From assembly GCA_964503315.1 (NCBI GenBank), contig CAZCZL010000005.1, forward strand, positions 5,335-69,334: a stretch of DNA of 64,000 nt, in the 5' to 3' direction. Within the stretch, counting starts at the first letter, position 1, and every line of letters starts with the position of its first letter. This document shows positions 1 to 53,352 of this stretch, piece by piece. A program made the translations under genes and the position numbers. This stretch comes from an uncultured Ignavibacteriales bacterium (GTDB lineage Bacteria; Zixibacteria; MSB-5A5; GN15; FEB-12). A model generated the notes under the pieces. The model saw only the letters and a program-made list of their open reading frames with translations. It made no database searches and was not told the origin of the DNA.

Positions 1-163
1 CGGATTCAATACGCTGAATAGATTCATCGCGGCCTCGCAGAGCTATCAGTCGCGATTTGCCGCAGGATTTGGAACGAACTTCCCGGTCAAAGCGGGGAAA
101 CCGTATCAGGCGAACAACGCCGCGAGCGGAACATTCCCGCAGTAAGGCCAGGAGGGTGACAGT

Positions 164-3100
164 ATGAGAAAAAAACGTCTCGATATATCCGGAGGTGCCA
201 CAGTGGCAAAGGGAAAAGAGCTTCTTAGGATGCAGAAGTTGCTTGGACTTGTCGTACTGTTGTTGGTCACGCCGTTGACATCTGCGTTCGCGCAGGGATC
301 GATCTTTGGTACGGTGCAGAACTCGAATCTGAGCACACCGGCCAACGGACAGATCAGTTTCTACGGCTTCACCGATAATACTGACGACGAGATCCGCCTG
401 GAATCCTCGATCGGTGCTGGATATGACGCCGGCAACTGGTTCGATGATTTCCAGAACTATCTCTCGAAGACACCAGGCAACCCGTACACATACCGCTTCT
501 TCAATACGACGAACGGCGAAGGTGCGGTGCTGGCCAGTACCATTCCGAACAACTCCTTCCAACAGGAGAATATTGTATTGGGTACGGTCAGTTGGCCGGC
601 AGCGCCGACCGGAATGTCGGCCCGGATAATCTCCTCGACCTCCGTGGTCCTCACGTGGACCCGCGTAGCCGGAGTGACGTATCACGTTTACCGTCGTCCC
701 TCCACCTCGCAAGGTTCGTTCTTCCGGATAGACAACCCGGCCGGTTTGTTGACCGATGCCGGCGAGGTTGATAGTTTCTTCGTTGATAATACCGTCTCTG
801 GTGGCTTGTCGTATGACTACCTGTTGATCGGCCAGAATGGTTCTGGTCTCGGTCCGCACTCGTCCATCCTGACGGTCTCCACCGCCACTCCCACCGCGCC
901 GGCGATCGCATCCATTACGCCGACCAGTGGTTCGAGTCTCGGCGGCACGCCGGTGGTCATCGCCGGTACCGGATTCGATGTCAATGGCGCCACGGTGACT
1001 CTTGATGGCGCGCCGCTTACCTCCGTGACTGTAACGTCACCGTTCCAGATCAACGCGGTCACTCCGGCTGGATCCGCCGGACCGGCTGATCTGGTCGTGA
1101 CCAATACCGCCGCCGGGCTTTCCGCATCCCTCCCCGCGGCCTATACCTATCTTGGCAACCAGGCGCCAGTGTTGGCCGCGATCGGCCCGCGCTCGGTAAA
1201 CGAAGGGGCCAACTTGAACTTTGGTGTCTCCGCGAGTGACGCCGACGGCACCACGCCCACTCTGACCACTTCAACGCTTCCGCTTAACGCGACCTTTGTT
1301 GACAACGGCAATGGAACCGGTACGTTCAACTTTACGCCGAGCTTTACGCAGGCCGGCGCGGTCAACGTGACTTTCTACGCGTCGGATGGCATAGTCATTG
1401 ATTCCGAAGTCGTTGCAATCACGATCAATAACGTGAACCAGTTGCCGGTGTTGGCGACGATCGGCCCGCGGTCGGTGAATGAAGGCGCCAATCTGAATTT
1501 TGGTGTCTCCGCGACTGATGCTGACGGTACCACGCCGACGCTGACAACGTCCGCTCTGCCGCCCAACGCGGTCTTTGTTGACAATGGGAACGGCACCGGG
1601 ACCTTTGATTTCTCGCCGAGCTTCAGCCAGTCGGGCGTGATCAACGTCACGTTCTACGCAACGGATGGTTCCGCCATCGACTCCGAGCAGGTCGCTATCA
1701 CCGTGAATAACGTCAACCAGGCGCCGGTGCTGGCGGCAATCGGTCCGCGCGCGACCACTGAAGGAGCCGTATTAAACTTTGGCGTCAGCGCCTCTGATCC
1801 TGACGCGACTACGCCTGTTCTGACTACTTCGGCACTCCCGACCAACGCGACGTTCACTGATAACGGCAACGGCACGGGGACATTCAACTTCGCGCCGAAC
1901 TTCACTCAGGCAGGTGTCTACAACGTGACGTTCTACGCCTCCGATGGCACCGCTATCGATTCTGAAATTGTCGCGATAACGGTTACCGGCACAAACCAAG
2001 CGCCGATCCTGGCCGCTATCGGCCCGCGCGCGGTCACCGAAGGGCAGCTATTGAACTTTGGTGTCACCGCCTCTGACGGCGATGGTTCCACGCCGACCCT
2101 AACGACGTCCACGCTGCCGCTTAACGCCACATTCATCGATAACGGCAACGGCACCGGTACATTCAATTTCACGCCGTCGTTTACGCAGGCTGGATCGGTA
2201 AACGTGACCTTCTACGCGACGGACGGAATCGACACTGATTCCGAAGTCGTCGCGATCACGATCAATGAAGCGGGTAACCAAGCGCCAGTACTGGCGAATA
2301 TCGGCCCGCGCGGTGTCTCCGAAGGGAACACGCTCGCCTTTGTGGTGAGTGGATCCGATGTGGACGGTACTTTCCCGACCCTCAGCGCCGTCAATCTTCC
2401 GCTTAACGCGACTTTGACGGATAACGGCAACGGTACGGCCAACTTCAGCTTCACACCTGATCTGACGCAGTCCGGTTTTTACGCGGTCACATTCATCGCT
2501 TCGGATGGCGCGCTTGCCGACTCCGAGATAGTCGCGATAAACGTCACCGAGACCAACCAGGCGCCGGTGCTGGCCGCGATCGGCCCGCAAGCGGTCACTG
2601 AAGCGCAGTTGCTGACCTTTGGCGTCAGCGCGACTGATGGTGACGGCGACACGCCAACTTTGACCACTTCAGCGCTCCCCAGTGGTGCGTCGTTCATTGA
2701 CAATGGCAACGGTACCGGGACATTCACCTGGACGCCGACCTTCCTACAGGCGGGTGTCTATCCGGTCACGTTCTACGCGACTGATGGTCTGGTGACCGCC
2801 GATGTTGATTCTGAGGTGGTGACCATTACGGTAACTGACGCAGGTAACCAGACACCGGTGCTGGCGACAATCGGCCCGCGGTTCATTACCGAAGGCGCGG
2901 TGCTGAACTTCGCGGTCTCAGCGACGGATGCTGATGGCACTCCGCTTACTCTGACCGCGGATCCGCTGCCGACCAACGCGACGTTCACGGATAACGGGAA
3001 CGGCACGGGGACGTTCAATTTCGCGCCGGACTTCACGCAGTCCGGAGGTTATCAGATCACGTTTGTGGCCAGCGATGGCGCTGCCGCTGACTCGGAGTTA

Positions 3101-5716
3101 GTGACGATCATGGTCACCGAGTCTGGAAACGTTTCGCCGGTCATCACCGCGATCCCTGACACTTCAGTCTCTGAGGGTGGCGTCGTGGTGATCAACGTGA
3201 CCGCGGATGACCCGGATTCACCACTCGCTCCCGCGCTCGGCATTTCCGCGGCGACACTGCGCAATTTCACGTTCACTGATAACGGTAACGGCACCGGCGT
3301 ACTGACTTATTCGCCGGACTATATTGATGCCGGTGTTGACTCGGTCTACTTCTTTGCGACCGATGGCTCTTCCACTCCCGGCTCTGAGCTGGCAGTGATC
3401 ACGACGATCGATGTCAACCAGATACCATTCTTCCGCGCGGTGACACCGAAGCAAGTGCAGGCGAATGATTCGCTCCGCTTCACGGTGACGGCGGTTGACT
3501 CGACCGATCCGGGATGGCCGCGCCGTCTCTTCCTGACCGCGACCGGTCTGCCGGCTGGCGCGACTTTCACTGACAATGCCAACAATACTGGTACTTTCCG
3601 CTGGGCGCCCAATTCGACGCAAGTGGGAAGCTACAACGTGACACTTTACGCGACCGACCAGGGCATCCCCGCTCTCGCCGGGACCGTGGCAGTGCCGATA
3701 TCAGTCGTGCCGGTCAACAATCCGCCGGTGCTGAATCTTGCTTCGGCTGAAGCCCGCATCGTGGGTGAAGGGCAGTCGTTGGTGGTGAGCATCAGCGCCA
3801 CCGATCCAGATGGCGGCACGCCGTCGATCGATGGACAGGACCTCCCCGCCAACTCGTCGATCGTACCGACCGGCGCGGGAACCGCTGACTTTATCTTCAA
3901 CCCTGATTTCACGCAGGGCGGCAATACCGGCAAGTCACGGCTTTACTCCGTGACGATCCTCGCGAGCGATGGCTCTGCGACCGATCGTTCGGTGGTGACC
4001 ATACAGGTTGTCGACGCAGGAAATCAGGTACCGGTCTTCGATACTGTACCGTCGCCGACGTTGACCGAAGGTCTGGTAGATACGTTCGTCGTGCACGCGT
4101 CCGACCCGGATGGCGGCACGATCACATTGTCGGCTATCAACGCGACTCTGCCGACCAATGCTGACTTTATCCCGCGTCCGGATGGTAATGGCTGGATAAT
4201 CTTCAGCCCTGGCTACACGCAGGCCGGTACATATCAGATAGGGATCATTGCGAGCGATGGCACGCTCGTCGATACGGTCTATATAACGATTGAAATTCTT
4301 GAGGCCGGCAACCAGCCGCCGGTGTTGGCGACTATTGCGGATCGTTCTGTGAACGAACGCGCTGCTCTCGTCTTCAGATTCTCCGGCACCGACCCGGATG
4401 GTCCTCGTCCGCTCTTGTCAGCGGCTCCGCTGCCGACGGGCGCGGTGGTGGTTGACTCCGGTAACGGCGCGGCATCGTTCACCTGGGTTCCGACAAACTT
4501 TGACGCGGGTGTGTATCCGGTCTACTTCTATGCCGAAGACCGTGACTTCGCCGGTGTTTTCGATTCACAGCTCGTGAATATCACCGTTCTCGACTCGAAT
4601 ATCGCGCCGATCATTTTCGCGACCGGCGGACGGACGATCAACGAAGGTGACACGCTTCGGTATGTGATCTCCTCTTCGGATGAGGATCTGACCATTCCGA
4701 GCATTCGGTGCCGCCTGACGACCGCTGATTCACTGGCGACCAATATGTCGTTCTTTGATTCCGGCAATGGTATCGGTGTGCTGACGTTTGTTCCTGACTA
4801 CACGCAGGGCGGGAACGGAACGGTCGGGAATACACAGATACTGTACAACGTCTATTTCATCGCGACCGACGAGACTGATCCATTGTTGACTACTCAGACC
4901 TCGGCGGTCCAGATAACGGTGCGCCATATCAACGCGCCGCCGAATCTGGTCTTCCCGTTAGGCGAAGGACCGTTCACGATCAACGAAGGGACCACCCTTA
5001 CCTTCAACGTTACGGCGAACGACCCTGATGGCGGGCTACCCACTATCTCGGCGACGAATATTCCGACAAACGCGACGTTTGCCGCAGGAATAATTTCGAG
5101 GACATTCAGCTTCACGCCGGACTTTACCCAGGCCGGAACCTATGTCGTCAGGTTCTATGCCAACGATGCGGGGACTCCGGTTCGCTGGGATTCGGTCTAC
5201 ATGACGATCAACGTAACGGATGCCGGCAACCAGGCGAGTCGCTTCACGACGACCCTCCCCGACACCTTGAACGTTGCCACTAATGTGTTGACACAATTGG
5301 TGATACGGGCGACCGACCCCGAGCATACCACAATCACACTGGCGGCTTCGCCGCTCTCGCCAGTCGCCACGTGGGTCGATTCCGGGAACGGAATTGGTGT
5401 CTACTCCATCACGCCGGACTCCACCATGGTGGGTCAGGGGTGGGATATGGAGTTCACCGCCACGGACGCTCAAAGTGCCGTAACGACGATGCATACCCAT
5501 CTGCGGGTGGTGAGTTTCCTTCGCGGAGACCTCGATCAGAACGGCAAATATACGTTGATCGACCTGGCCGTGCTGGTGAACTATCTGCTCCGTCAGGGTC
5601 CGCCGCCGGTGACGCCTGAGACGGCTGATGTGAACGCGGACTTGAAGATAGACCTGTCGGATCTGGCGTATATGATCAACTTCATGTATGACGGGGGGAG
5701 TCGTCCGCCGCAATAA
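164..5716 (+). CDS. giant secreted surface adhesin: FN3-like + IPT/TIG + 15 tandem cadherin-like Ca-binding Ig modules + C-terminal dockerin
   Basis: 1850-aa ORF. GGAGGG Shine-Dalgarno (151-156) lies 7 nt before ATG164. Hydrophobic signal segment LLGLVVLLLVTPLTSAFAQ. IPT/TIG-like ITPTSGSSLGGTPVVIAGTGF. Repeated NQAPVLAxIGPR..SASDxDG..DNGNGTGTF..FYAxDG modules. Terminal dockerin. Confidence 0.9.
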   Translation: MRKKRLDISGGATVAKGKELLRMQKLLGLVVLLLVTPLTSAFAQGSIFGTVQNSNLSTPANGQISFYGFTDNTDDEIRLESSIGAGYDAGNWFDDFQNYLSKTPGNPYTYRFFNTTNGEGAVLASTIPNNSFQQENIVLGTVSWPAAPTGMSARIISSTSVVLTWTRVAGVTYHVYRRPSTSQGSFFRIDNPAGLLTDAGEVDSFFVDNTVSGGLSYDYLLIGQNGSGLGPHSSILTVSTATPTAPAIASITPTSGSSLGGTPVVIAGTGFDVNGATVTLDGAPLTSVTVTSPFQINAVTPAGSAGPADLVVTNTAAGLSASLPAAYTYLGNQAPVLAAIGPRSVNEGANLNFGVSASDADGTTPTLTTSTLPLNATFVDNGNGTGTFNFTPSFTQAGAVNVTFYASDGIVIDSEVVAITINNVNQLPVLATIGPRSVNEGANLNFGVSATDADGTTPTLTTSALPPNAVFVDNGNGTGTFDFSPSFSQSGVINVTFYATDGSAIDSEQVAITVNNVNQAPVLAAIGPRATTEGAVLNFGVSASDPDATTPVLTTSALPTNATFTDNGNGTGTFNFAPNFTQAGVYNVTFYASDGTAIDSEIVAITVTGTNQAPILAAIGPRAVTEGQLLNFGVTASDGDGSTPTLTTSTLPLNATFIDNGNGTGTFNFTPSFTQAGSVNVTFYATDGIDTDSEVVAITINEAGNQAPVLANIGPRGVSEGNTLAFVVSGSDVDGTFPTLSAVNLPLNATLTDNGNGTANFSFTPDLTQSGFYAVTFIASDGALADSEIVAINVTETNQAPVLAAIGPQAVTEAQLLTFGVSATDGDGDTPTLTTSALPSGASFIDNGNGTGTFTWTPTFLQAGVYPVTFYATDGLVTADVDSEVVTITVTDAGNQTPVLATIGPRFITEGAVLNFAVSATDADGTPLTLTADPLPTNATFTDNGNGTGTFNFAPDFTQSGGYQITFVASDGAAADSELVTIMVTESGNVSPVITAIPDTSVSEGGVVVINVTADDPDSPLAPALGISAATLRNFTFTDNGNGTGVLTYSPDYIDAGVDSVYFFATDGSSTPGSELAVITTIDVNQIPFFRAVTPKQVQANDSLRFTVTAVDSTDPGWPRRLFLTATGLPAGATFTDNANNTGTFRWAPNSTQVGSYNVTLYATDQGIPALAGTVAVPISVVPVNNPPVLNLASAEARIVGEGQSLVVSISATDPDGGTPSIDGQDLPANSSIVPTGAGTADFIFNPDFTQGGNTGKSRLYSVTILASDGSATDRSVVTIQVVDAGNQVPVFDTVPSPTLTEGLVDTFVVHASDPDGGTITLSAINATLPTNADFIPRPDGNGWIIFSPGYTQAGTYQIGIIASDGTLVDTVYITIEILEAGNQPPVLATIADRSVNERAALVFRFSGTDPDGPRPLLSAAPLPTGAVVVDSGNGAASFTWVPTNFDAGVYPVYFYAEDRDFAGVFDSQLVNITVLDSNIAPIIFATGGRTINEGDTLRYVISSSDEDLTIPSIRCRLTTADSLATNMSFFDSGNGIGVLTFVPDYTQGGNGTVGNTQILYNVYFIATDETDPLLTTQTSAVQITVRHINAPPNLVFPLGEGPFTINEGTTLTFNVTANDPDGGLPTISATNIPTNATFAAGIISRTFSFTPDFTQAGTYVVRFYANDAGTPVRWDSVYMTINVTDAGNQASRFTTTLPDTLNVATNVLTQLVIRATDPEHTTITLAASPLSPVATWVDSGNGIGVYSITPDSTMVGQGWDMEFTATDAQSAVTTMHTHLRVVSFLRGDLDQNGKYTLIDLAVLVNYLLRQGPPPVTPETADVNADLKIDLSDLAYMINFMYDGGSRPPQ
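1157..5524 (+). repeat. in-frame tandem array of 15 cadherin-like modules (about 93-97 aa each) inside the adhesin gene
   Basis: Module-opening AAC codons sit at 1157, 1436, 1715, 1994, 2276, 2555, 2846 and 3128, giving periods of 279, 279, 279, 282, 279, 291 and 282 nt. Modules 1-7 are near-identical at protein level; modules 8-15 are progressively divergent (NVSPVI.., NQIPFF.., NNPPVL.., NQVPVF.., NQPPVL.., NIAPII.., NAPPNL.., NQASRF..). Confidence 0.9.
5525..5713 (+). other. dockerin module (two EF-hand-like Ca loops, each followed by a helix)
   Basis: GDLDQNGKYTLIDLAVLVNYLL ... DVNADLKIDLSDLAYMINFMY. The 12-residue DxDxNG....D and DxNxD...D..D loops are followed by hydrophobic helices, as in type I dockerins. 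Confidence 0.75.
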
Positions 5717-5753
5717 TTGCGCTCACACGCATCTATTTTTGTCGCGTATATCA

Positions 5754-5789
5754 AGCCCGATTCGCCGCGTGCGAGTCGGGCTTTTTGTT
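5754..5789 (+). terminator. rho-independent terminator after the adhesin gene
   Basis: 12-bp stem agcccgattcgc / gcgagtcgggct (one G-U pair), 5-nt loop, then a TTTTT run. It lies 38 nt after the stop codon. Confidence 0.7.
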
Positions 5790-5821
5790 CCCGTCGGACG
5801 CCGTTTTTAAGGTCAAAAGTC

Positions 5822-5850
5822 TTGACAAAAACCCTTCAAATCAGTAAGTT
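5822..5850 (+). promoter_or_regulatory. candidate sigma-70 promoter (TTGACA-17-TAAGTT) far upstream of the 6267 gene
   Basis: Perfect -35 TTGACA at 5822-5827, a 17-nt spacer, and a weak -10 TAAGTT at 5845-5850. This would give a leader of about 410 nt. Confidence 0.3.
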
Positions 5851-6266
5851 ACCATTCGGAAAAGTCTTAATAGTGGTTTGACCGCTTGTGTGGTCTTACA
5901 GGTGTAAATCTCACGGTATAAATGCGAAGGTGGCCGCTCCGCCGACTCAACGCGAGTAGATGATCGTGACCGGATCATCGATGGACGGAGTTGCCTGTAG
6001 CATAAATCACTTTATTGAACGCGTACTGCACTAGTTCACGTCTCGTTGGCTTTTTCGGACGAGGGGTAAGTGACGCCAACTCAACCGGCCTTGCAGAAGG
6101 TATGGAAGGGAGGTGGATTTACAGAGTAGAGTAACAACACGCCGCCGATGCGCATCCATCAACTACAGGCATCGTCCGGCTCCTTTTGCATTTCAGATTT
6201 GATTCGAAGAATCAGTGTAATCCAAAATACGCTGGGAACTATTGTAAACAGTTGAAAGGAACAAGC

Positions 6267-9200
6267 ATGACGAAGAAATGGTTCTCGATTGTCGTCCTTC
6301 TGGTCGTGCTCGTTGGGATGCTGGCTATTACGGCTGATGCCAAGCTGCGTCCGAGCGATCCACGAATTGAGAAGGCACGCATCTTCCAGAGAAGCCTGGC
6401 CCTTGATGACGGTCTGGGTGAGGCGATAGCTGGCGCTCGCGGCTATCAGACTTCCTCGCTCGGCGCCGCTCAGCCGGCTGTCGATTCTCGTGGTGCCCTG
6501 GTTGCGCAGACTTGGCGTGACTGGATGGCGAATGCCGCGATCGGCCGTACCGTCGATCACAACCCCCCGGCCTCGTTGTTCCCCGGTGTGCAGTTCGCCT
6601 ACATGGAGAAAGCCTCCGCGGCGGCGTCAGACCGTACCCGTTGGGGATGGGCGGCGTATGAAGCCGTTACCGCTGGTGGTTCGTATGTACCGGCCGGTGG
6701 TAAAGTGGTAGTGCAGTCGGATGCTCCGGGTTCAGTGGAAGCCGGTTCCTATCCGAAGATCTATGTTGATCAGACTGGTACTGCCCTTTTCGGTTCGTAT
6801 GACTTCCCGGATCAGGCCTCCCTGCCGAACGATATGTACATGCATATTTCGCAGGACGCCGGCCCGATCGTCGGTGACTTCGGTGGTATCCTTGATGGTA
6901 GCGTCATGGACAATGCGATCCGCAACGCGGGTGGTATTGAAGGCGCGACCACCATCTGGCCGACCATGGCTGTCCATGAGGCCGCTGGCGTTCTCACCAT
7001 CTACCTCGCGGCGTTTGAAAACGTCGGTGGTAACGATGGCGCCATGAAGGTTTTCCGCAAAGTTGGGTATGCCCCGGCGAACCCGGATGCTACCTGGTCG
7101 ATCGTCTTCAGTGACACGACCTTCTTCCCGTCTCAGGATATCTCTGCGTCGCCTGTGTCGACCCGTGTAGGCGTCTGCTGGCCGAAGTTCACTCCGGCTG
7201 GCCGTACCGCCGGTGACACGTCGCAGAACGATGTCTGGTGCGCGATCTCCCCGACCGGCGCGTCCGGTACCTGGGTCCGCACGAACATCACCAACTACTC
7301 CGGTGCCGGCTATCGCGCCTGGTTGGAAGTTGGTTGCTTGTTTGACACGTCAGACAAGTTCCACGTGATCTGGAACGGTTCGTACACCGACGGCGTCGAT
7401 TTCGGCAACCGTCGCTGCCGTCTGTTCCACTGGTCGGAGCACGTTCCGGGCAGCATCTACACGATCTTTGATGCTGGTTGGGATCCGACCTTGACGGACT
7501 GCGTGGGTGGTTCGAACGTCATGAACGTTGGTAAGTTCTCCATCGCCGAGTGCGACGGTCGCCTGTACGCGATCTTCTCGGCGTGGAACTGGCCCGGTGT
7601 CGATGGCACCGATCCGGTTGACGACTGCTGCGCCAGCGCTTCGGTCGCCCAGGGCGCCAACGGCGAAGTCTATCTCTCCGTTTCCTCGAGCTTGACCGGT
7701 AATGCGTGGGATGTTCCGCGTAACCTGTCCGGTTCTTACGCTCCGGCCTGCGACACGGGCAACTGCGTCGACGACCGCTGGGCTTCCATCAGCCGTTTCG
7801 GCATGGATGACGCTCTGTATACTTCCCCGCAGTGGGCCAACGCCTATACGTATGATCTGGGCACTGGCTACGCCGGGACGAAGTATCTCCAGGTCTGGTA
7901 TGTCACCGACCGTTATCCGGGCGGTGGTATTCTGGCCACTCCGCAGGGTCCGCTGACCAACAACGATATGCGCTGGATCCGTATGGCGTGCGTTGCGCCG
8001 GTCCCGGCCGCTCTGCTTTCCGTCTCCCCGGGCTTCATCGCCTATCCGGAATACACCAAGCCGTCAGTCGAGAAGCAGTACACGCTGACTCTCGAAAACA
8101 CGGGTAACACCACGTTGACCATGGGTGCGATCACCGCGGTTGAAGATTCCGTGAAGCCGGCCCTTCCGGCGGTTCCGGGATGGCTCGGTTACTCTGGCGC
8201 TCCGGCGAGCATTCCGATCGCCAGCTCCGCCAACATGACGCTGGAACTGAACAACGGTGGTGTTGTCACTACCGGCCCGCGCCGTCTCTATGGTAAGCTG
8301 GTGTTCAACTATGGACCGCCCGCGAAGGTTCTCAATTTCCCGATCGAATTCATCGTGGCTGACACCATCGTGTTCACTACGTGGGATTCCATCACCACCC
8401 AGTGCGGCATTCGCCTGACGGTTGCTTCCAATGGTAACATGGGTAACAACTTCCTCGGCGGCGCCAACATGGGCTTCCCGCAGCCGTCTCCGGAATGCGA
8501 TACCAACGGTGGTACGCTGAATCCGGGTGATGCTGATATTTACATGGGCGACGGTTCGCCGACTATCGTTCGTAAGAACGGTGCGACGTATATCGCTTCC
8601 TGGTCGATCTTCCAGGATGGCTTTGCCTCCGCCAATGGCTTCAAGCCGTTGTTCGGCTTTGCCACGAAGGGCTCCTTCAGCGCCGCTCGCTGGGATGGCT
8701 ACAACTCCGGTACCTTCTGCACCTCCGACTCGCTCGTGAAGGTGGAGAAGACCTGGTGGGCCCCCAATGGCGCGACCAACGCTGATAGCTGTAAGTTCAT
8801 CATTCAGCGCATGCGCGTCTTCCCGTACACCATTGGCAACTCCGTGGCCGGTCTGGCCATCGGTGAAGCTTGGGACTGGGACGTGCCGACTGATACCGGT
8901 ACCTCTTCCGACGTCGCCTTCACCGACCCGACTCGCCGTCTGGCCGGTATGCGCGGATTCCGCTCGGTTGACACCGCTATCACGAACCACTCCTGCTACA
9001 ACAACTCGTTGCGGTATGCTGGTTCTGCGCTCATCGCGATGCACTTGAAGAACTGTGTCGTTGAAACCGCTCTGTATGGTGCTTACAACGCCGCCAACGA
9101 TAGCTTTGTCTATCCGGCCGGCGGATTTGTGCCGGAAGAACTGTGGGCCAACATGCAGTCGACTGGTTACTCTAACGAGTCGCGCGTGACTGACCTTCAC

Positions 9201-9647
9201 ACCGTTCTCGTCTACAAGAACGGCGCCTCGAACGTCGGCTACACTCTGCCGGCGAACGACACGCTGACTATCTGGACCGCGATGGCGGTTGTCCGTCCGA
9301 CCGGCGGCACCACTGCTCAGGGTCTGGATTCCTTGAAGAAAGAGATCGACAAGGCGTTCAAGTGGTATGAAAATGTGCGCCAGTGTACGGCCCCCCCGAC
9401 CTGCTGTATCGGTACCACCGGTAACGTCAACAAGAGCGCTGGCGAAACGCCTGACCTCTCTGACTTGTCACTGCTCGTCGGTTATCTGACGATTCCTGCC
9501 CCGAACAAGCCGGTACTTCCGTGCTTGCCGGAGGCGAACGTCAATGCTACGGGCGGCGTCAACCCTGACCTCTCGGATCTTTCCTTGCTGGTCGGATACC
9601 TGACGATTCCTGCCCCGAACAAGCCGGTCCTGCCGAACTGCCCGTGA
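6267..9647 (+). CDS. secreted Cys/Trp-rich protein of unknown function with C-terminal dockerin-like tandem repeat
   Basis: Start chosen at ATG6267 (GAAAGGA SD 6 nt upstream; signal peptide MTKKWFSIVVLLVVLVGMLAITADA). The ORF track start at 6186 has no signal peptide. There is no recognisable catalytic motif. The C-terminus carries 2x PDLSDLSLLVGYLTIPAPNKPVLP. Confidence 0.8.
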   Translation: MTKKWFSIVVLLVVLVGMLAITADAKLRPSDPRIEKARIFQRSLALDDGLGEAIAGARGYQTSSLGAAQPAVDSRGALVAQTWRDWMANAAIGRTVDHNPPASLFPGVQFAYMEKASAAASDRTRWGWAAYEAVTAGGSYVPAGGKVVVQSDAPGSVEAGSYPKIYVDQTGTALFGSYDFPDQASLPNDMYMHISQDAGPIVGDFGGILDGSVMDNAIRNAGGIEGATTIWPTMAVHEAAGVLTIYLAAFENVGGNDGAMKVFRKVGYAPANPDATWSIVFSDTTFFPSQDISASPVSTRVGVCWPKFTPAGRTAGDTSQNDVWCAISPTGASGTWVRTNITNYSGAGYRAWLEVGCLFDTSDKFHVIWNGSYTDGVDFGNRRCRLFHWSEHVPGSIYTIFDAGWDPTLTDCVGGSNVMNVGKFSIAECDGRLYAIFSAWNWPGVDGTDPVDDCCASASVAQGANGEVYLSVSSSLTGNAWDVPRNLSGSYAPACDTGNCVDDRWASISRFGMDDALYTSPQWANAYTYDLGTGYAGTKYLQVWYVTDRYPGGGILATPQGPLTNNDMRWIRMACVAPVPAALLSVSPGFIAYPEYTKPSVEKQYTLTLENTGNTTLTMGAITAVEDSVKPALPAVPGWLGYSGAPASIPIASSANMTLELNNGGVVTTGPRRLYGKLVFNYGPPAKVLNFPIEFIVADTIVFTTWDSITTQCGIRLTVASNGNMGNNFLGGANMGFPQPSPECDTNGGTLNPGDADIYMGDGSPTIVRKNGATYIASWSIFQDGFASANGFKPLFGFATKGSFSAARWDGYNSGTFCTSDSLVKVEKTWWAPNGATNADSCKFIIQRMRVFPYTIGNSVAGLAIGEAWDWDVPTDTGTSSDVAFTDPTRRLAGMRGFRSVDTAITNHSCYNNSLRYAGSALIAMHLKNCVVETALYGAYNAANDSFVYPAGGFVPEELWANMQSTGYSNESRVTDLHTVLVYKNGASNVGYTLPANDTLTIWTAMAVVRPTGGTTAQGLDSLKKEIDKAFKWYENVRQCTAPPTCCIGTTGNVNKSAGETPDLSDLSLLVGYLTIPAPNKPVLPCLPEANVNATGGVNPDLSDLSLLVGYLTIPAPNKPVLPNCP
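9420..9644 (+). other. dockerin-like module (degenerate loops, duplicated 24-aa segment)
   Basis: GNVNKSAGETPDLSDLSLLVGYLT..(38-aa offset)..ANVNATGGVNPDLSDLSLLVGYLT. Cys residues flank the segments (CCIG.., LPCLP, LPNCP). Confidence 0.55.
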
Positions 9648-9683
9648 TGAACGGTTAGTCTGAGTAGGATTGTCTCGACAATC

Positions 9684-9712
9684 AAAGGCCACCCGCAAGG
9701 GTGGCCTTTTTT
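9684..9712 (+). terminator. rho-independent terminator
   Basis: aaaggccaccc-gcaa-gggtggccttt, an 11-bp stem with a GCAA loop, followed by a T-run. Confidence 0.8.
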
Positions 9713-9734
9713 ATTGGGGGATGGTTTGTGAAGG

Positions 9735-9786
9735 CCCTCACCCGCCCCCGCGAAGGCGGGGGCACCCTCTCCCGGGGGGAGAGGGG
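9735..9786. repeat. REP-like structured intergenic element, family A (CCCTCACCCGCC ... CCCTCTCCC-loop-GGAGAGGGGAAA)
   Basis: ccctcacccgcccccgcgaaggcgggggcaccctctcccggggggagaggggaaa. It contains two GC-rich hairpins. A near-identical copy lies at 58437-58486. Confidence 0.7.
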
Positions 9787-9868
9787 AAAAAGAAAGAGCG
9801 AAGAGCGAAGTGGGGTGTGAGGGGATGGGTCAGGAGTCCGCGACAGCCTTTGCGCAGAAAACGTCCGC

Positions 9869-9946
9869 GTCTGCCCGTCTTCGTCACAGTGATCCGGGCA
9901 GACCGTAAGGTGTGCCGCGCAGGTTTGGAGGTGTGCCGCGCAGATC
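9869..9946. repeat. REP-like element, family B (GTCTGCCCG/CGGGCAGAC stem plus 2x GGTGTGCCGCGCAG at 21-nt period)
   Basis: A 9-bp inverted repeat gtctgcccg (9869-9877) / cgggcagac (9895-9903), then aggtgtgccgcgcag twice. It shares CGGGCAGAC and TGCCGCGCAGAT with 21472-21566. Confidence 0.65.
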
Positions 9947-9947
9947 T

Positions 9948-9985
9948 GATTTCTCCTTCGCCCTTTGGGAGAAGGTGTCGGCCTT
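9948..9985. repeat. family A-related hairpin (TTCTCC-loop-GGAGAAGGTG)
   Basis: ttctccttcgccctttgggagaaggtg. The reverse complement of 48897-48925 contains the related cccttctcccttggggagaaggtg. Confidence 0.45.
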
Positions 9986-10014
9986 GGGCGGACGGATGAG
10001 GGGCTGTTTTTTAC

Positions 10015-10042
10015 TTGTATAAATCGGCTAAGTCGTTATATT
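10015..10042 (+). promoter_or_regulatory. candidate sigma-70 promoter (TTGTAT-16-TATATT)
   Basis: -35-like ttgtat at 10015-10020, a 16-nt spacer, and -10 tatatt at 10037-10042. The leader to ATG10290 would be about 240 nt. Confidence 0.35.
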
Positions 10043-10289
10043 GTAGTCTGTACGGCCCTCGCATACAGTCGCCACCGACTTTGTATCTGACCTCAGTTCG
10101 ACCGTACTGACAACGGCGAATCCCTCATCTGTATGCCCCGGCTGTTCGATGATACTTGCATCCCTGGCGCGAACTTTTTGCGGCAGGTCCATGTTCATTC
10201 ATTACGCAAAGAAACAGATGGTCCGCGGAGAATCCGCCGATACAATCAAGGAACTTATGTCACACGCCAACCTGTATAGGAAAGCACTG

Positions 10290-12680
10290 ATGAGCACTTC
10301 GTTACGATCGCTCGCCGCACTATTGCTCAGCGCAGGGCTGCTGTTGATCGCGGTGCAGGGCGCGTCCGCCGTCTCTACCCAGGGACAGTCGCTGCCGAAA
10401 CCGACGATGCTGAAGGGGAAGGTCACTGTTCAATTCACCGAGGATGTTATCCCGTCGCGGATAGTCAACGGGTTTGGACGGGTCTCGGTGGGGGTCGCGT
10501 CACTGGACAATGTGCTCGCCACGGTGAACGCGAGTTCAGCCGAGGCGATCTTTGTCGACGCGAAGAAGCCGGAAGCCGGATCCGACAAGAAGGATCTCAC
10601 CGGATTCTATGAGTTGACCATCCCGGAGGACGCGGATGTATTCGCGACGGTGCGCGAATTGCTGCAGAACCCGAATGTCAAGCTGGCCGAACCGGTTTGG
10701 CTCTACTATATAGACATTTCCACGCCGAATGATCCGCAGTACGCGAGTCAGTACCAGATGTCGCCGCCCGGTCCCGACCCACAGCCGTACAACGCATGGG
10801 ATCTGGAGCGTGGCTCAGACTCCATCAAGATCGCCATCATCGATACCGGTGTACTCTACAACCATCCTGACCTGACCGGCAATATCTGGGTCAACCCGGG
10901 TGAGGATATAGATGGAGATATGGCGGTCTGGGATCCGGGCGACATGAACGGGATCGATGATGACGGGAATGGATTCATCGATGATCTGGTCGGCTGGGAT
11001 TTCGTGAACGCGATGAGTTCGGTCTGGCCGGGTGAAGATGGGGTCACTCGCGACAATAATCCGAGCGACCACAATGGTCACGGCACGCATTGCGCGGGGA
11101 TCTCCGCCGCGATGACGAATAACGGAACCAACGTGACCGGCGTGGCCGGTGGCTGGTTCGGCGGACACCGTTCGTCACGCGGTTGCCGCATCATGTGCAT
11201 CCGCGCCGGTGGGACGACAGCCGCCGGATTGGGTGAACTCAATTCCAACGATCTCGCCGCGGCCGTGAATTACGCCGCGAATAATGGCGCGCACGTCATT
11301 AATGGGAGTTGGGGTGGCGGGTCTTTCAGCTCCGCGCTCAATTCCGCCATGTTCAATGCTGTTTCGGCGGGTGTGTCGTTCATTCACTCCGCTGGAAACG
11401 ACAATGTTGATGTTGAAGGATGGCACGACCAGGTGCCCGGTGTGGTGACTGTTGCCGCGACCAACAACGCCGACCAGAAGTGGGTCTGGAGCTCGTCACA
11501 GGGTTCCAACTACGGGACCTGGATAACCGTCAGCGCGCCCGGACAGAATATTCTCTCGACCGTGTCGAATTCCTATTCTCCCAGTACGGCGATATATACG
11601 GGTACGTCCATGGCCGCGCCGTATGTGGCGGGGTTGAACGCGCTGATACGGTCGATGATGCCGTCGCTGACGCGCGCGCAGGTTGATTCGATCATTACGG
11701 TGACGACTGACAATATTGACGCGCAGAATCCATCGTATGTCGGATTGCTCGGCACCGGTCGCGTGAACGCGTTCACGGCGCTCTCCGGTCTGGCGAACGC
11801 CAAGTTCACCTCGAACGTGACCGACGCGAATGTTCCGTTCACGGTTAACTTCACCGATCAGTCGCCGAACTCGCCAAGCGCGTGGGATTGGTCGTTCGGC
11901 GATGGCGGTACTTCGACCGACCAGAATCCTTCGCACGCGTACAACATCCCCGGGGTTTACGATGTTTCGCTGAAGATCACGGAGGCAAATGGGCTCGGCG
12001 AAGAGCATCTGAATAATTACATTTGGGCGCGCGCGGATACGATCAAGATCGATTCGCTTATCGTTGACCCGGGGACCAAGCCGGTCTTTACGGTTCGTCT
12101 GGCGAACACGGCGCAAGTCAAGACGATGATGCTGCCGTTCTCCGCGTTCAATGACCAGGGGATCACGCTGGATTCATTCTCGGTGGTCGGCACCCGTTGC
12201 GCGGCCTTCGAGCAAGTGGCGTTGGATGGCGGCGATGGAATGACGACCTTCGGCATCGACCTTCGACCGACGCTCACCGGCACACCGAACTACATGACGG
12301 TCGGCAGCGGTACGATCGTAAAGCTGTATTTCAATATACCTTCCACGGCGGCCAAGGGGACGGTGGTGACGATCGATACGTTGTCGTTGGGATTGGGTGG
12401 TTCGAAGAAGCCAAAGATCGCGGCGACGCTGGCGGATTACTGGCCGGTATTTAAGCCGGGGAAGATCGTGGTTCGGCCATGTATGCGGGGCAAGATGTTC
12501 TGCGGGCCGGGGCTCCCTGACCTGACGGATCTCAGTATATTGATCTCCTACCTGACGACCACGAGTCCGGTGCCGGATCCGTATGGTGGCAATGTGAACG
12601 GGGTTGGCAATATTGACATTTCCGACCTTTCTTACTTGATCGCCTATCTGGTTGCCGGGGGGAACCCACCGCCGAATTGA
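10290..12680 (+). CDS. secreted subtilisin-family (S8) serine peptidase with PKD domain and C-terminal dockerin-like module
   Basis: Asp/His/Ser triad motifs IAIIDTGV, HGTHCAGI and GTSMAAPYVAG. PKD-like FTVNFTDQSPNSPSAWDWSFGDGGTSTDQNPSHAYNIPGVYDVSLKI (about 11802-11995). Start at ATG10290 gives signal peptide MSTSLRSLAALLLSAGLLLIAVQGASA with an AGGAAA SD. Confidence 0.9.
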   Translation: MSTSLRSLAALLLSAGLLLIAVQGASAVSTQGQSLPKPTMLKGKVTVQFTEDVIPSRIVNGFGRVSVGVASLDNVLATVNASSAEAIFVDAKKPEAGSDKKDLTGFYELTIPEDADVFATVRELLQNPNVKLAEPVWLYYIDISTPNDPQYASQYQMSPPGPDPQPYNAWDLERGSDSIKIAIIDTGVLYNHPDLTGNIWVNPGEDIDGDMAVWDPGDMNGIDDDGNGFIDDLVGWDFVNAMSSVWPGEDGVTRDNNPSDHNGHGTHCAGISAAMTNNGTNVTGVAGGWFGGHRSSRGCRIMCIRAGGTTAAGLGELNSNDLAAAVNYAANNGAHVINGSWGGGSFSSALNSAMFNAVSAGVSFIHSAGNDNVDVEGWHDQVPGVVTVAATNNADQKWVWSSSQGSNYGTWITVSAPGQNILSTVSNSYSPSTAIYTGTSMAAPYVAGLNALIRSMMPSLTRAQVDSIITVTTDNIDAQNPSYVGLLGTGRVNAFTALSGLANAKFTSNVTDANVPFTVNFTDQSPNSPSAWDWSFGDGGTSTDQNPSHAYNIPGVYDVSLKITEANGLGEEHLNNYIWARADTIKIDSLIVDPGTKPVFTVRLANTAQVKTMMLPFSAFNDQGITLDSFSVVGTRCAAFEQVALDGGDGMTTFGIDLRPTLTGTPNYMTVGSGTIVKLYFNIPSTAAKGTVVTIDTLSLGLGGSKKPKIAATLADYWPVFKPGKIVVRPCMRGKMFCGPGLPDLTDLSILISYLTTTSPVPDPYGGNVNGVGNIDISDLSYLIAYLVAGGNPPPN
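12501..12677 (+). other. dockerin-like module
   Basis: CGPGLPDLTDLSILISYLTTTSPVPDPYGGNVNGVGNIDISDLSYLIAYLVAGG. The second loop, NVNGVGNIDISD, is EF-hand-like; the first loop is truncated. Confidence 0.6.
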
Positions 12681-12705
12681 GCTGTTGAAGCATAAAGAAC
12701 GGTCC

Positions 12706-12741
12706 ATAGCGGGGTTGTAAATCCAACCCCGCTATTATTTT
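12706..12741 (+). terminator. rho-independent terminator
   Basis: 12-bp perfect stem atagcggggttg / caaccccgctat, 6-nt loop, T-rich tail tattttat. Confidence 0.75.
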
Positions 12742-12764
12742 ATGAGAAAAGGCAGACTTTTTTA

Positions 12765-12794
12765 TTGACGCCGGACTTTGGGGGGTGTTATAGT
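12765..12794 (+). promoter_or_regulatory. candidate sigma-70 promoter with extended -10 (TTGACG-18-TGtTATAGT)
   Basis: ttgacg at 12765-12770 and tatagt at 12789-12794, preceded by tgt. The leader to ATG13005 would be about 200 nt. Confidence 0.4.
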
Positions 12795-13004
12795 TGTGTA
12801 CTTTCTAAAATCTGCCCTAATGTGAAGTGGCATAACACAAACCTCACAGGGAGGTGTAGCAGAACATAGTTTGTTAATGTCTTTGATTTTGTTCCGCGAT
12901 TTCACGGATGGACACGTCGATGGAGTATCGACGGTTGATGGCGCGGCCAAGGTGGCCGCATACTTTGATAACATGTGTGTGGATAATAAAGGTAGGAGTA
13001 TCAA

Positions 13005-13979
13005 ATGAAGCGATCAATTCTGTTCGTGCTTCTGTTCGCCGTTCTGGCGATCGTGGCGGGTTCGAACAGCTACGCGCAGTCGCACGTCGTTAAGATCGAT
13101 ACGATCAAGAACACCCAGTACGCGAACGAGATTCAGGAAGGGCAGAACCCCCGGTTCCTTTTCCGAATCACTAATAACACCGCCAACTACTATGATGTGA
13201 GTTTGGGGGTCAAGTTCACCTCCCCTGATGGCGCCGCGTGGGACAGCATCACGACCGACTCGGTCGGGCCGTTCAATATCGACGGCGAGTGCATCTGGGG
13301 TCTTCGTTGGAACCAGGTGTTTGCGTTTGACGAAGGGAACAATGGATCAGGCGCTGGCAGCGACACGGCCGGATTCCTCGGCGCCGGCAGCCCGACTTCC
13401 GCTTCCCGGCAGTTGGCTCCCAACTACAATGATACGATGATGGCGGTGACCGTCTGGTTGAATGGCACCAGCAACCATGGCAAGCATATCTGCGTTGATT
13501 CAGCCGTCGCTCAGGATGCGCTGTGGACGTGGAAATGGGTGGAGCGCGGTACGTTCGCTGACATATTCCCGACGTTCGAGTCCTATGGCGGCATTACGTA
13601 TGAACCGTCCGGCACCGGTGCCGATCGTATCGGCTCGGGTTACTGCTTCATGGTTCGCGACCCGCTCGTAGGCGTGGACGAGAATGAAGGACTGCTCCCG
13701 AAGGAATTCACGGTCAGCAAGAACTATCCGAACCCGTTCAACCCGTCCACCACGATCGACTACTCCGTGCCGCGGAAGTCGAAAGTGAACCTCTCCGTGT
13801 ACAACGTGCTCGGTCAGAAGGTGGCGACGCTGGTGAATACCGAGATGGCTGCCGGCAAGTACCGCGCCGTCTGGGATGGTAAGGCCGACAACGGCTCGAC
13901 TCTCTCCTCGGGTATCTATTTCTACAAGTTTGAAGCTGACAACTTCGTTAAGACCTCTAAAATGGTCATGCTGAAGTAG
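13005..13979 (+). CDS. secreted protein of unknown function with T9SS type-A C-terminal sorting domain
   Basis: AGGAG SD. Signal peptide MKRSILFVLLFAVLAIVAGSNSYAQ. The C-terminus KNYPNPFNPSTTIDYSVPRKSKVNLSVYNVLGQKVATL...GIYFYKFEADNFVKTSKMVMLK is the typical Por-secretion-tail pattern. Confidence 0.85.
   Translation: MKRSILFVLLFAVLAIVAGSNSYAQSHVVKIDTIKNTQYANEIQEGQNPRFLFRITNNTANYYDVSLGVKFTSPDGAAWDSITTDSVGPFNIDGECIWGLRWNQVFAFDEGNNGSGAGSDTAGFLGAGSPTSASRQLAPNYNDTMMAVTVWLNGTSNHGKHICVDSAVAQDALWTWKWVERGTFADIFPTFESYGGITYEPSGTGADRIGSGYCFMVRDPLVGVDENEGLLPKEFTVSKNYPNPFNPSTTIDYSVPRKSKVNLSVYNVLGQKVATLVNTEMAAGKYRAVWDGKADNGSTLSSGIYFYKFEADNFVKTSKMVMLK
13719..13976 (+). other. T9SS C-terminal sorting domain (Por_Secre_tail type)
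   Basis: NYPNPFNP...Y.V.G..V...........W......SGIYFY.......T.KM.L.K signature. Confidence 0.8.
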
Positions 13980-13998
13980 TCAAATCCTTGAAGACTTA

Positions 13999-14030
13999 AA
14001 CCCCTCCGGCTTTGGCCGGAGGGGTTTTTT
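13999..14030 (+). terminator. rho-independent terminator
   Basis: aacccctccggc-tttg-gccggaggggtt, a 12-bp stem followed by TTTTTT. Confidence 0.85.
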
Positions 14031-14100
14031 GTTGACGGCTTGGCCAAAAGGTGATTGCGCCGATTAACGTGTTGTGGCGCAATATCTTAAATGATTCTCC

Positions 14101-14129
14101 TTGACAATCTTCGGGGGATATGTTAGGCT
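14101..14129 (+). promoter_or_regulatory. candidate sigma-70 promoter (TTGACA-17-TGtTAGGCT)
   Basis: Perfect -35 at 14101-14106. The -10 taggct is weak but has an extended TG. An 8-bp inverted repeat attgcgcc(14054-61)/ggcgcaat(14076-83) lies just upstream. Confidence 0.3.
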
Positions 14130-14184
14130 ACTATTTCAATGGCCCATGCCGCAAGTTATAACTAATTGATAGACAAGGTTTTAT

Positions 14185-20013: not shown

Positions 20014-20670
20014 ATGCGAAAGTTCACTGGCACCCTGATCCTGATCGTGACGGTTGTTGCCGCCTCGCTCTGGGCACAAGCACCCGACGTTGATTCGACC
20101 CAGCCAAAGCAGATTGGCAAGTACAGCGACCTTCTCGAACGACTGCAGGCCGCTGACATGACCATTGACTTCAGCGAACTTCGTCAGTCGTATATCCAAT
20201 CCGATGAGTACAAGCCGTACAGGGACGACATCCTTGAGAGCCAGACCAAGATGCAGAAGGCGCTGAAGAAGAGGAATTTCGCCGAAGCCCGGACCGCAGC
20301 GGAGTCGATCCTTAACAGTGATTATCTTAATCTCGAAGCACACATGGTTTGTGAGGTAACCTCAGATTCGCTTGGGGAAATCAGCCGCGCACATTTTCAT
20401 GGATGGGTTTGCGACGGCCTGCTTGACGCGATATTGGCCAGTGGCGATGGGCTGTCCCAGGCAACCGCATACCATGTGTTGACCGTAAGCGAGGAATACG
20501 TGGTACTCGATGTTCTAGGACTTCAGTCGCGGGGGCAATCGCTCGAGCATGCTGACGATGGAACGTCGTATGATATTTTCAAAGTCAAAGATAAGAACAG
20601 CGGCGAGAAACGCGAGGTCTATTTTAACATCACGCCAATGATGGCCGCGCTGGACAAGATGTTTGACTAA
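20014..20670 (+). CDS. secreted hypothetical protein (paralogue of 35477-36238)
   Basis: AAGGGAG SD. Signal peptide MRKFTGTLILIVTVVAASLWAQA. It shares a DFS..R....Q...Y.P ... A...A..L...Y...(E/D)AH pattern with the 253-aa protein at 35477-36238. Confidence 0.7.
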   Translation: MRKFTGTLILIVTVVAASLWAQAPDVDSTQPKQIGKYSDLLERLQAADMTIDFSELRQSYIQSDEYKPYRDDILESQTKMQKALKKRNFAEARTAAESILNSDYLNLEAHMVCEVTSDSLGEISRAHFHGWVCDGLLDAILASGDGLSQATAYHVLTVSEEYVVLDVLGLQSRGQSLEHADDGTSYDIFKVKDKNSGEKREVYFNITPMMAALDKMFD

Positions 20671-30832: not shown

Positions 30833-31469
30833 ATTTCCTCACTGCCTGGATAAGGCGCTGGCGAAGTCGCTCCAGCGTGATCGTGTAAGGGTCAAATGCG
30901 GCGATCCTGGCCGCGAGTTCAGGAAAACCGTGGGCGCGCGTCCAGGTGGAGAAGTCATTCTCATCACGCTTGAGTCGAAGCGGCGCTTCGAATAGATGGA
31001 AGTAGAGCGTATTCAGGTTGACCTGCTCGAGTAGCTCGGCGAATTGAGCCAGGTCATTGGCGACATACGAGGTTGGTACCACAAAGGTCCGACAACTCAT
31101 GAAATGAAACTGTTCCCCCGCGGTAGATGAGGTCTGGTGTCCTCCCGAATCGAGGTAGTGAGTCAGTCGCTCGACAAAGGCCTGGCGAATAGATTCTATC
31201 TGTTTGTAGGAGACAATGTCGACACTGGCCAGACTCTCAGACAGCTGGTCAAGGTTGAGGACTGAGCCGGTCCAGAAGGCGAAATCATTGGGCGGCTCCG
31301 GCGACAGGTAGTGATGCTGTTGCAGGAAGTGGTGTGTGTGATAATATATCGAGGCCGGCGGGACCATCTTGATCCCCTCCAGCAATTCTCCAGCAGAGCG
31401 CGCTCGTTGACCAAGGAGCAGTACTTGATGGGATCGCGTGTAAAAGCGGAACGGTTCGGCGGGGTTCAT
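30825..31469 (-). CDS. conserved hypothetical protein in the trehalose operon
   Basis: 214-aa ORF. Translationally coupled on both sides: a 4-nt overlap with 31466-33682 and an 8-nt overlap with 29597-30832. Confidence 0.7.
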   Translation of the reverse strand: MNPAEPFRFYTRSHQVLLLGQRARSAGELLEGIKMVPPASIYYHTHHFLQQHHYLSPEPPNDFAFWTGSVLNLDQLSESLASVDIVSYKQIESIRQAFVERLTHYLDSGGHQTSSTAGEQFHFMSCRTFVVPTSYVANDLAQFAELLEQVNLNTLYFHLFEAPLRLKRDENDFSTWTRAHGFPELAARIAAFDPYTITLERLRQRLIQAVRKYA

Positions 31470-50795: not shown

Positions 50796-50800
50796 GGAAT

Positions 50801-53332: not shown

Positions 53333-53352
53333 CATCTAAAGGAACATAGGAT

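Follow-up and report, generated by a model that had tools for sequence, protein, structure and literature searches.

The window analysed here is the whole stretch of 64,000 nucleotides taken from contig CAZCZL010000005.1 (assembly GCA_964503315.1), which is deposited under an uncultured Ignavibacteriales bacterium and placed by its GTDB lineage in the Zixibacteria. An earlier reading of the letters alone (the "sequence-only reading") had pointed to three consecutive genes near its beginning, each with a signal peptide and a strong terminator of its own, whose otherwise dissimilar products end in dockerin-like modules. Our analysis indicates that the three tails are very probably members of the dockerin family, i.e. 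duplicated pairs of a calcium (Ca) loop and a helix ("F-hand"). The components of this three-gene "island" are as follows.

164-5716, plus strand: gene 1, an 1850-amino-acid (aa) secreted adhesin-like protein with a TIG domain and 12 Big_9/cadherin-like repeats (Pfam)
5525-5713, plus strand: tail 1, a canonical Cys-free type I dockerin with the loops DLDQNGKYTLID and DVNADLKIDLSD
5753-5793, plus strand: intrinsic terminator of gene 1, a 13-bp stem followed by a T-run
6264-9647 (the open reading frame opens at 6186), plus strand: gene 2, 1127 aa from the ATG at 6264, secreted, annotated without a function
9402-9644, plus strand: tail 2, a four-Cys "CC-type" dockerin, CCIGTTGNVN...PDLSDLSLLVGYLT...C...ANVN...PDLSDLSLLVGYLT...LPNCP-stop
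9684-9717, plus strand: intrinsic terminator of gene 2, a stem and a T-run
10149-12680, plus strand: gene 3, 843 aa, a secreted S8 subtilase with Peptidase_S8 and PKD domains (Pfam)
12480-12677, plus strand: tail 3, an intermediate dockerin with a degenerate loop 1 (CGPGLPDLTD) and a canonical-like loop 2, NVNGVGNIDISD
12706-12745, plus strand: intrinsic terminator of gene 3, a stem and a T-run

The three-gene island and its C-terminal modules

The open reading frame (ORF) list of the window contains three plus-strand ORFs in a row (164-5716, 6186-9647 and 10149-12680), as the sequence-only reading had described them. The true start of gene 1 is probably the ATG at 230, immediately ahead of the signal peptide, and that of gene 3 is probably the ATG at 10257 or 10290, likewise close before the signal peptide. 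Inspection by eye revealed signal-peptide-like N-termini on all three proteins, in which a basic n-region and a hydrophobic core lead up to an AxA-like site; putative cleavage would separate MQKLLGLVVLLLVTPLTSAFA from QG in protein 1, MTKKWFSIVVLLVVLVGMLAITADA from K in protein 2 and LRSLAALLLSAGLLLIAVQGASA from V in protein 3. The individual terminators were confirmed as well: the three hairpins, located at 5753-5783, 9684-9709 and 12706-12735, with stems of 11-13 bp and T-runs, are within the top four of the 16 terminator-like sites found at positions 1-14500, the fourth of these strongest sites (13998-14027) lying 3' of the next gene, 13005-13979. The secreted bodies to which the common C-terminal tag is attached are unrelated, again in agreement with the earlier description. 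In the protease the catalytic D, H and S motifs are intact (DTG, HGTH and GTSMA). For the body of protein 2 we found no match in Pfam, NCBIfam or a PDB sequence search; its composition (1.95% Cys and 2.84% Trp) makes the label "Cys/Trp-rich" a fair one.

Comparison of the three tails with their relatives allowed us to align two segments, each with an EF-hand-like loop and a helix, in all of them. The alignment exhibits an invariant Asp at positions 9 and 12 of both loops and a conserved helix motif L..L(I/V).YL, where dockerin segments are defined as tandem units of about 22 residues in which a helix follows an EF-hand-like loop with its ligands at positions 1, 3, 5, 9 and 12. A profile calculated from this alignment found 17 matches among PDB sequences, dockerins without exception, the best being 4fl4_A (E=2.3e-5). 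The tail motifs are present exactly as the sequence-only reading had quoted them, and when six-frame ORFs of 80 aa or more from the window were screened for the loop-helix junction with a regular expression, the three island ORFs were the only matches. Tail 1 alone scores 43.2 bits against the Pfam model Dockerin_1 (PF00404), for which the gathering threshold is 22.9 bits, and at E<=1 this model is matched by 12 of the 16 aligned tails.

In order to avoid circularity, a separate hidden Markov model (HMM) was built from 87 modules, all of which come from other genomes or metagenome-assembled genomes (MAGs) and none from the window. In a search of 671 six-frame window ORFs this independent HMM identified tail 2 with 98.3 bits (E=7.7e-30), tail 3 with 49.9 bits (E=1e-14) and tail 1 with 40.8 bits (E=6.8e-12), the next-best ORF appearing at E=1.3. 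Since the same model finds all three, tail 1, which Pfam recognises, is homologous to the two tails that Pfam misses. The AlphaFold2 (AF2) model of tail 2, with a predicted local distance difference test (pLDDT) score of 89.7 and a predicted template modelling (pTM) score of 0.78, exhibits two long helices around a short one. When it was compared with the PDB using Foldseek, ranks 1-15 were all occupied by dockerins, which include types I to III; their target-normalised TM-scores range from 0.64 to 0.81 and the probability reaches 0.91.

Several observations weigh against the assignment of tails 2 and 3 to the dockerins. Of the Dockerin_1 search that had been proposed as a check, only the part concerning tail 1 gave a clear match; tail 3 reaches 19.1 bits and thus stays under the gathering threshold, and tail 2 does not match this model. 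The Foldseek E-values of tail 2 are only 0.07-4, weak for a model of 83 residues, which we attribute to the domain being so small, and the multiple sequence alignment used for its AF2 model included one row with a canonical dockerin. Finally, Ca binding by tail 2 is uncertain because its loops comprise 14 residues each, two more than the canonical 12, and begin with Asn at position 1. Taken with the Pfam match of tail 1, the independent HMM for all three tails, the PDB profile search and the model of tail 2, the dockerin-like character suggested earlier is nevertheless upheld.

Judged by sequence, the tails represent three flavours: the canonical Cys-free form of the adhesin, the four-Cys form with the LPNCP end in protein 2, which is typical of Zixibacteria, and the intermediate form of the S8 protease. 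The sequence-only reading had assigned tails 2 and 3 to one variant flanked by Cys residues and had set it apart from the EF-hand type of tail 1, with possibly two or more specificities. The shared motif is indeed there, but the Cys pattern is not the same: tail 2 has a CC pair at the start of the module, one Cys in the linker and one in the penultimate position, whereas in tail 3, with its degenerate first loop, only the two upstream Cys are found and the terminal one is absent. Nor can the "EF-hand" and "PDLSDLS" types be kept cleanly apart. In P0111, an ortholog of protein 2, the first loop is canonical, GDINGDGRVDVGD, but lies within the same Cys framework, and this protein carries a Dockerin_1 match on its Pfam record, so that the two types grade into each other.

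Immediately after the island follows another secreted-protein gene on the plus strand, 13005-13979, which ends not in a dockerin but in a C-terminal domain (CTD) for sorting by the type IX secretion system (T9SS), of the Por_Secre_tail/FlgD_ig kind. Thus two alternative C-terminal tags are found side by side. The nearby GH35-like protein encoded at 14185-16368 is devoid of a dockerin.

The Cys-bearing dockerin family beyond the window

A database search with tail 2 retrieved 24 proteins that end in a common, clearly delimited module, the consensus of which is SCC(I/V)GTTGNVNxSxxExPDLSDLSLLIAYLTxxPxPxLPCxxEANVNxxGxIDLSDLSLLIAYLTxxPxPxLPNCP. A HMMER search of 1.84 billion representative proteins yielded 8,561 matches at E<=1e-3, the weaker of which will include ordinary dockerins, and 1,635 representative clusters at E<=1e-10. 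We also scanned the GTDB representative genomes, among which the genome of the window was not included (best match, 72% identity), and found 69 loci. Nearly all of them are located in MAGs labelled Zixibacteria, Zixiibacteriota or GN15; the remaining ones bear what appear to be default "uncultured Ignavibacteriales" labels or, in one case, belong to a Sedimentisphaerales MAG. The largest number found in a single MAG is about 17.

Together with the three of the window, these loci contain 109 module-bearing ORFs. The four Cys are invariant or nearly so among the 76 full-length carriers, of which only two match Dockerin_1 at E<=1e-5, hence routine annotation misses the CC-type family; the public names of the ten family members that we checked are uninformative. 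A crude heuristic detected a signal-peptide-like start within the first 80 or so codons in about 87 of the 91 N-terminally complete carriers. According to Pfam, the bodies of the 76 carriers are of extracellular types: thrombospondin type 3 (TSP3) repeats, the commonest body domain (15/76), FG-GAP and other beta-propellers, BNR repeats, peptidases of families M4, M64, C25 and S8, and plastocyanin-like, NosD and lectin-like domains. Glycoside hydrolases are absent from their top 25 Pfam families. TSP3 repeats are also found in the window itself, in an OmpA-family protein (36875-38320, minus strand) that fits a diderm envelope.

The clustering of tagged genes noted in the window turned out to be recurrent in other Zixibacteria. 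At least two module genes are present in 25 of the 69 loci and at least three in ten (a locus spanning up to about 12 kb), mostly head-to-tail on one strand, i.e. in the same layout as in the island. The body of protein 2 was seen solely in Zixibacteria-type genomes, with the tail-2 type of module present every time; its orthologs include P0111 (56% identity over the body), an ORF in L029 (47%) and P0074 (46%). The synteny of the three-gene island does not extend to P0111, upstream of which the gene order is not conserved and housekeeping genes are found. In L029 (4828-11141) there are three tandem paralogs of the protein 2 body (466, 603 and 1053 aa), all of them tagged by a CC-type dockerin, so that tandem duplication accounts for some islands; in that of the window the bodies are unrelated.

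These results bear on the trivial explanation, namely that the tails resemble dockerins by chance or low complexity and that their genes are neighbours by coincidence. The shortness of the motif and the lack of a Pfam match for tail 2 would be in its favour. Against it, the independent HMM separates the three tails (E=8e-30, 1e-14 and 7e-12) from the rest of the 671 ORFs, none of which falls below E=1.3, the family extends over the 1,635 clusters, the AF2 model with the dockerin fold is a confident one, and by our own estimate three consecutive genes out of about 50 have a probability of about 0.002, in addition to the recurrence of the layout. We consider this explanation effectively refuted by the cluster count, the recurrent layout and the HMM, and give it a negligible probability.

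The internal structure of the module also contradicts low complexity. The halves of tail 2 (9462-9533 and 9576-9647) are identical in 24 of 24 aa, and the 11 of 72 nucleotides in which they differ are all synonymous, which points to purifying selection for identical halves and not to a recent duplication. Across 198 modules the mean identity between halves is 72% inside one module, compared with 49% between halves of different proteins; we infer that the halves co-evolve and are kept alike by selection. In PMC5429695 this property is given as the one behind the dual binding mode of enzyme-borne dockerins. By analogy with the clostridial dockerins of dual binding mode, the symmetry suggests two equivalent binding faces and is, in our view, the best indirect evidence for a working, two-faced protein-binding surface rather than a decayed relic.

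The position of the module is relevant for another explanation, in which the CC-type tail is itself a sorting or anchoring signal that reuses the dockerin fold and is read by dedicated machinery, comparable to the T9SS CTD or to PEP-CTERM and exosortase. The sequence-only reading had mentioned a sorting signal as its alternative. In its favour, the module lies 0-2 residues from the stop in 84 of 104 stop-bounded ORFs, 66 modules end with the dipeptide CP, and the carriers are numerous and paralogous within a genome and have diverse secreted bodies. They also usually lack a T9SS CTD while their secreted neighbors have one, as would be expected of two alternative tags. However, fold and sequence are those of a dockerin, and C-terminal placement is not obligatory: CC-type dockerins occur straight after the signal peptide at L046:5830-6840, L061:5833-8259, L064:1149-1922 and L065:5911-6747, followed by e.g. 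a Fib_succ_major-like domain, and in L051 and P0058 the module is internal, ahead of a spacer and a genuine T9SS CTD. These cases show that the module is position-independent; P0066 and P0138 also combine dockerin-type repeats with a T9SS CTD. Searches of Pfam and NCBIfam with the three proteins and their tails revealed no match to Por_Secre_tail or TIGR04183, and for tails 2 and 3 no NCBIfam sorting-domain or dockerin-anchor model was found at E<=1. The ends of the tails (...GGSRPPQ, ...PVLPNCP and ...GGNPPPN) have no hydrophobic stretch and no hydrophobic or basic anchor, in contrast to LPXTG, PEP-CTERM and GlyGly-CTERM signals, in which a hydrophobic helix and a basic tail come after a short motif at the very C-terminus. 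In addition, a role in a disulfide is the simpler explanation for the terminal Cys, no candidate for a processing enzyme turned up among the adjoining genes, and cohesins, the partners of dockerins, exist. The sorting-signal explanation is thus weakened, and we regard it as improbable.

Cohesins, the candidate receptor and a proposed docking model

The sequence-only reading had proposed a protein encoded 43 kb from the island as a scaffoldin that could receive the tagged proteins. Its components, and a probably related domain in the S8 protease, are listed below.

55787-58363, plus strand: candidate receptor, 858 aa, with a signal peptide, He_PIG/cadherin-like repeats, a cohesin, a dockerin and a T9SS CTD
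56903-57559 (aa 373-591), plus strand: cohesin, identified by AF2 and Foldseek
57560-57790 (aa 592-668), plus strand: the receptor's own divergent dockerin, directly after the cohesin
58127-58360, plus strand: T9SS C-terminal sorting domain (Por_Secre_tail, 45.9 bits), separated from the dockerin by a spacer of about 110 aa
12018-12479 (aa 624-777), plus strand: probable cohesin-like beta-sandwich in the S8 protease, preceded by the PKD domain and followed by the dockerin, on weak to moderate evidence

The Pfam Cohesin model gives only 12.1 bits (E=0.23) for the 55787 protein, and the identity of the domain was settled by structure prediction. The AF2 model of aa 369-660, calculated from an alignment of 40 sequences, has a pLDDT of 87, and all 46 PDB structures that Foldseek retrieved with the cohesin model at E<=1e-3 are cohesins, the best being 3ul4_A (E=9.8e-10, target-normalised TM-score 0.80) and the first non-cohesin appearing at E=0.013. 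Hence the cohesin fold proposed earlier was borne out, whereas the array expected of a scaffoldin was not: one cohesin has been demonstrated, and "scaffoldin" overstates the case. A second cohesin considered in the N-terminal 160 aa was rejected, as this region shows no relation to the cohesin profile.

The cohesin-dockerin-CTD architecture has at least 449 database members, and those with a named source are nearly always from Zixibacteria or GN15. In L053, from another MAG, a CC-dockerin gene lies directly upstream of an ortholog of the cohesin protein, after which a second cohesin-like protein is encoded. In L073, from the complete Zixibacteria genome LS998015.1, this cassette forms the C-terminal end of a 2405-aa ORF, about 5 kb from a gene for a Dockerin_1 protein. 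The public gene call there (499 aa) covers only the cohesin-dockerin-CTD part of that ORF, L073:4283-11497; as about 8 kb upstream contain no called gene, the real protein is probably far larger. In the closest relative (L072), the cohesin is 88% identical and apparent frameshifts break up the assembly. Ahead of the cohesin gene in the window, the region 49464-54621 encodes a histidine kinase, a sigma-54 response regulator and two proteins without Pfam domains (354 and 422 aa), and this gene order is kept in L072:3176-7844. From the conserved order one may suspect that the cohesin protein is under sigma-54 regulation.

The domain that precedes the dockerin in the S8 protease likely has a cohesin-like fold as well, to judge from profile comparisons. 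It recurs immediately upstream of CC-type dockerins in P0123, P0128, L055, L057 and P0294, and the second cohesin-like protein of L053 contains two copies; when a database was searched with the domain, only two proteins were returned. It scores 14.4 bits (E=0.043) against the Pfam Cohesin model, and the best matches of its profile in the PDB are cohesins, none of them significant (E>=0.26). Alignment with the validated cohesin family by hhalign gave E=3.9e-7 and a probability of 93% when the bridging repeats of L053 were included, and E=0.0025 with a probability of 12% when they were left out. If the assignment is right, the protease would be a cohesin-dockerin dyad like the 55787 protein.

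We consider it moderately likely that these parts make up a non-cellulosomal cohesin-dockerin system for surface display, the whole docking mechanism included. The tagged proteins would leave the cytoplasm via Sec by means of their signal peptides, and the dockerin would fold outside it. In the CC-type, two disulfides, formed by the initial CC pair with the Cys residues of the linker and the penultimate position, probably staple the domain, tying both ends and the linker; the AF2 model of tail 2 brings the two termini next to each other and has a beta-bridge that links residues 7 and 81. The folded dockerin, possibly with Ca bound, would then plug non-covalently into the cohesin of a surface protein, for which the 55787-58363 product is the candidate in the window. 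The T9SS sorting domain of the cohesin protein would take that protein out and attach it to the outer membrane, so that adhesins, proteases and other exoproteins would be held on the cell surface.

Several facts tell against such docking. The window contains one solid cohesin, whose own dockerin, right behind it, may occupy it, and its gene is 43 kb from the island genes. The dockerin-tagged island proteins have no T9SS CTD, which leaves their passage across the outer membrane unexplained, and Peer et al. reportedly described, in 2009, many genomes in which dockerins are far in excess of cohesins.

In an alternative explanation, dockerin-derived modules, Ca-binding or disulfide-stabilised, are used without cohesins, be it for self-association, for binding of a glycan, lipopolysaccharide (LPS), mineral or substrate-surface ligand, or for mere stabilisation. 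To our knowledge, dockerin-like modules are widespread outside cellulosomes without a known partner. The TSP3 repeats common in carriers are Ca-binding themselves, carriers appear to far outnumber recognisable cohesins (a cohesin gene is adjacent at one of about 70 loci), and the cohesin of the window bears its own dockerin. On the other hand, near-identical halves under purifying selection are the signature of a two-fold symmetric protein-binding surface, a conserved cohesin family is present in the same phylum, and in carriers of the protease type a cohesin-like domain seems to accompany the dockerin. We therefore view cohesin-independent use as rather unlikely.

A more elaborate version of the docking model couples it to the T9SS. 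In this version, only the cohesin(-dockerin)-CTD proteins would bear the T9SS signal, and the many CC-dockerin proteins without a CTD, presumably stapled by disulfides, would dock to them, maybe already in the periplasm, and cross the outer membrane as hitchhikers. Dyads of cohesin and dockerin, such as the 55787 protein and probably the S8 protease, could then chain head-to-tail into a mesh of surface proteins. As a complete scenario this is quite doubtful.

Among the remaining features of the window are a trehalose cluster (29597-33682, minus strand), encoding a TreT-like glycosyltransferase and a fused trehalose-6-phosphate synthase/phosphatase, and two DUF4919 paralogs located 15 kb apart (20014-20670, plus strand, and 35477-36238, minus strand). 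Rfam and tRNA scans of the window detected only a tRNA-Glu.

Relation to known cohesin-dockerin and sorting systems

We found no publication that links Zixibacteria with dockerins or cohesins. Cohesin-dockerin systems outside cellulosomes are already known, as is a CTD-anchored scaffoldin from a related phylum; new are the four-Cys subfamily, its size and taxonomic focus, and its pairing, which we propose, with a divergent cohesin-dockerin-CTD family. A large, mostly unannotated subfamily is thus added to the dockerins, together with a counterpart family of cohesins invisible to Pfam, and both are placed in an uncultured diderm phylum, the Zixibacteria. They hint at how proteases and adhesins may be organised on the surface of these bacteria, and the tails and the cohesin at 56903-57559 offer a concrete pair for binding tests. 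A dockerin that is, as we suppose, naturally stapled by disulfides may also interest protein engineers.

The T9SS CTD (Por_Secre_tail, TIGR04183) resembles the island tails in that it marks the C-termini of numerous unrelated secreted proteins within one genome, and in the window it is found on the 13005-13979 product and on the cohesin protein. It is, however, a PorU-cleaved beta-sandwich of about 75 residues, whereas the island tails are helical dockerins.

The best profile and structure matches of the tails are the clostridial type I dockerins, represented by those of Acetivibrio/Clostridium thermocellum enzymes (1ohz_B, 2ccl_B, 4fl4_A and 4dh2_B). Common features are a length of about 65-80 residues, two segments of Ca-loop and helix, near-identical halves and the C-terminal position on secreted proteins. 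The host, however, is a diderm Zixibacterium and not a Firmicute, and the cargo consists of an adhesin, a protease and a protein without assigned function instead of glycoside hydrolases. Tail 2 differs further in its four conserved Cys, the LPxCP end, the Asn at loop position 1 and the 14-residue loops, and it escapes PF00404. Multi-cohesin scaffoldins, with several cohesins in tandem, have no counterpart here, as the 55787 protein contains one, nor are the dockerins borne mainly by glycoside hydrolases and other carbohydrate-active enzymes (CAZymes): the cargo of the window has none, and no glycoside hydrolase family is in the top 25 of the 76 carriers. For these two reasons the system is not a cellulosome.

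Use of the two modules outside cellulose degradation is exemplified by the Archaeoglobus fulgidus cohesin (2xdh) and by NagH and NagJ of Clostridium perfringens (2ozn and 2jh2). There too, a cohesin and a dockerin may be combined in a single polypeptide, and the structures matched by the window cohesin include 2xdh and 2jh2. In those examples there are few such proteins per genome, in contrast to the large paralogous family of tags described here (about 17 loci in one MAG), with its tandem clusters and proposed T9SS coupling.

The closest parallel is the cellulosome-like complex proposed for Ca. Stygibacter (Cloacimonadota; PMC8542988), which comprises dockerin-tagged enzymes, including an S8 peptidase, and a CTD-anchored cohesin scaffoldin. 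Both hosts belong to candidate phyla of the Fibrobacteres-Chlorobi-Bacteroidetes (FCB) group, and both have signal-peptide-bearing proteins with C-terminal dockerins and a cohesin protein with a conserved C-terminal domain for surface attachment (predicted in the case of the window). The scaffoldin of Ca. Stygibacter is a protein of 3,755 aa with tandem cohesins and carbohydrate-binding modules (CBMs) and was found by standard InterPro domains, while the cohesin of the window is single, divergent (12 bits in Pfam) and fused to its own dockerin, and most of the dockerins described here belong to a Cys-bearing subfamily.

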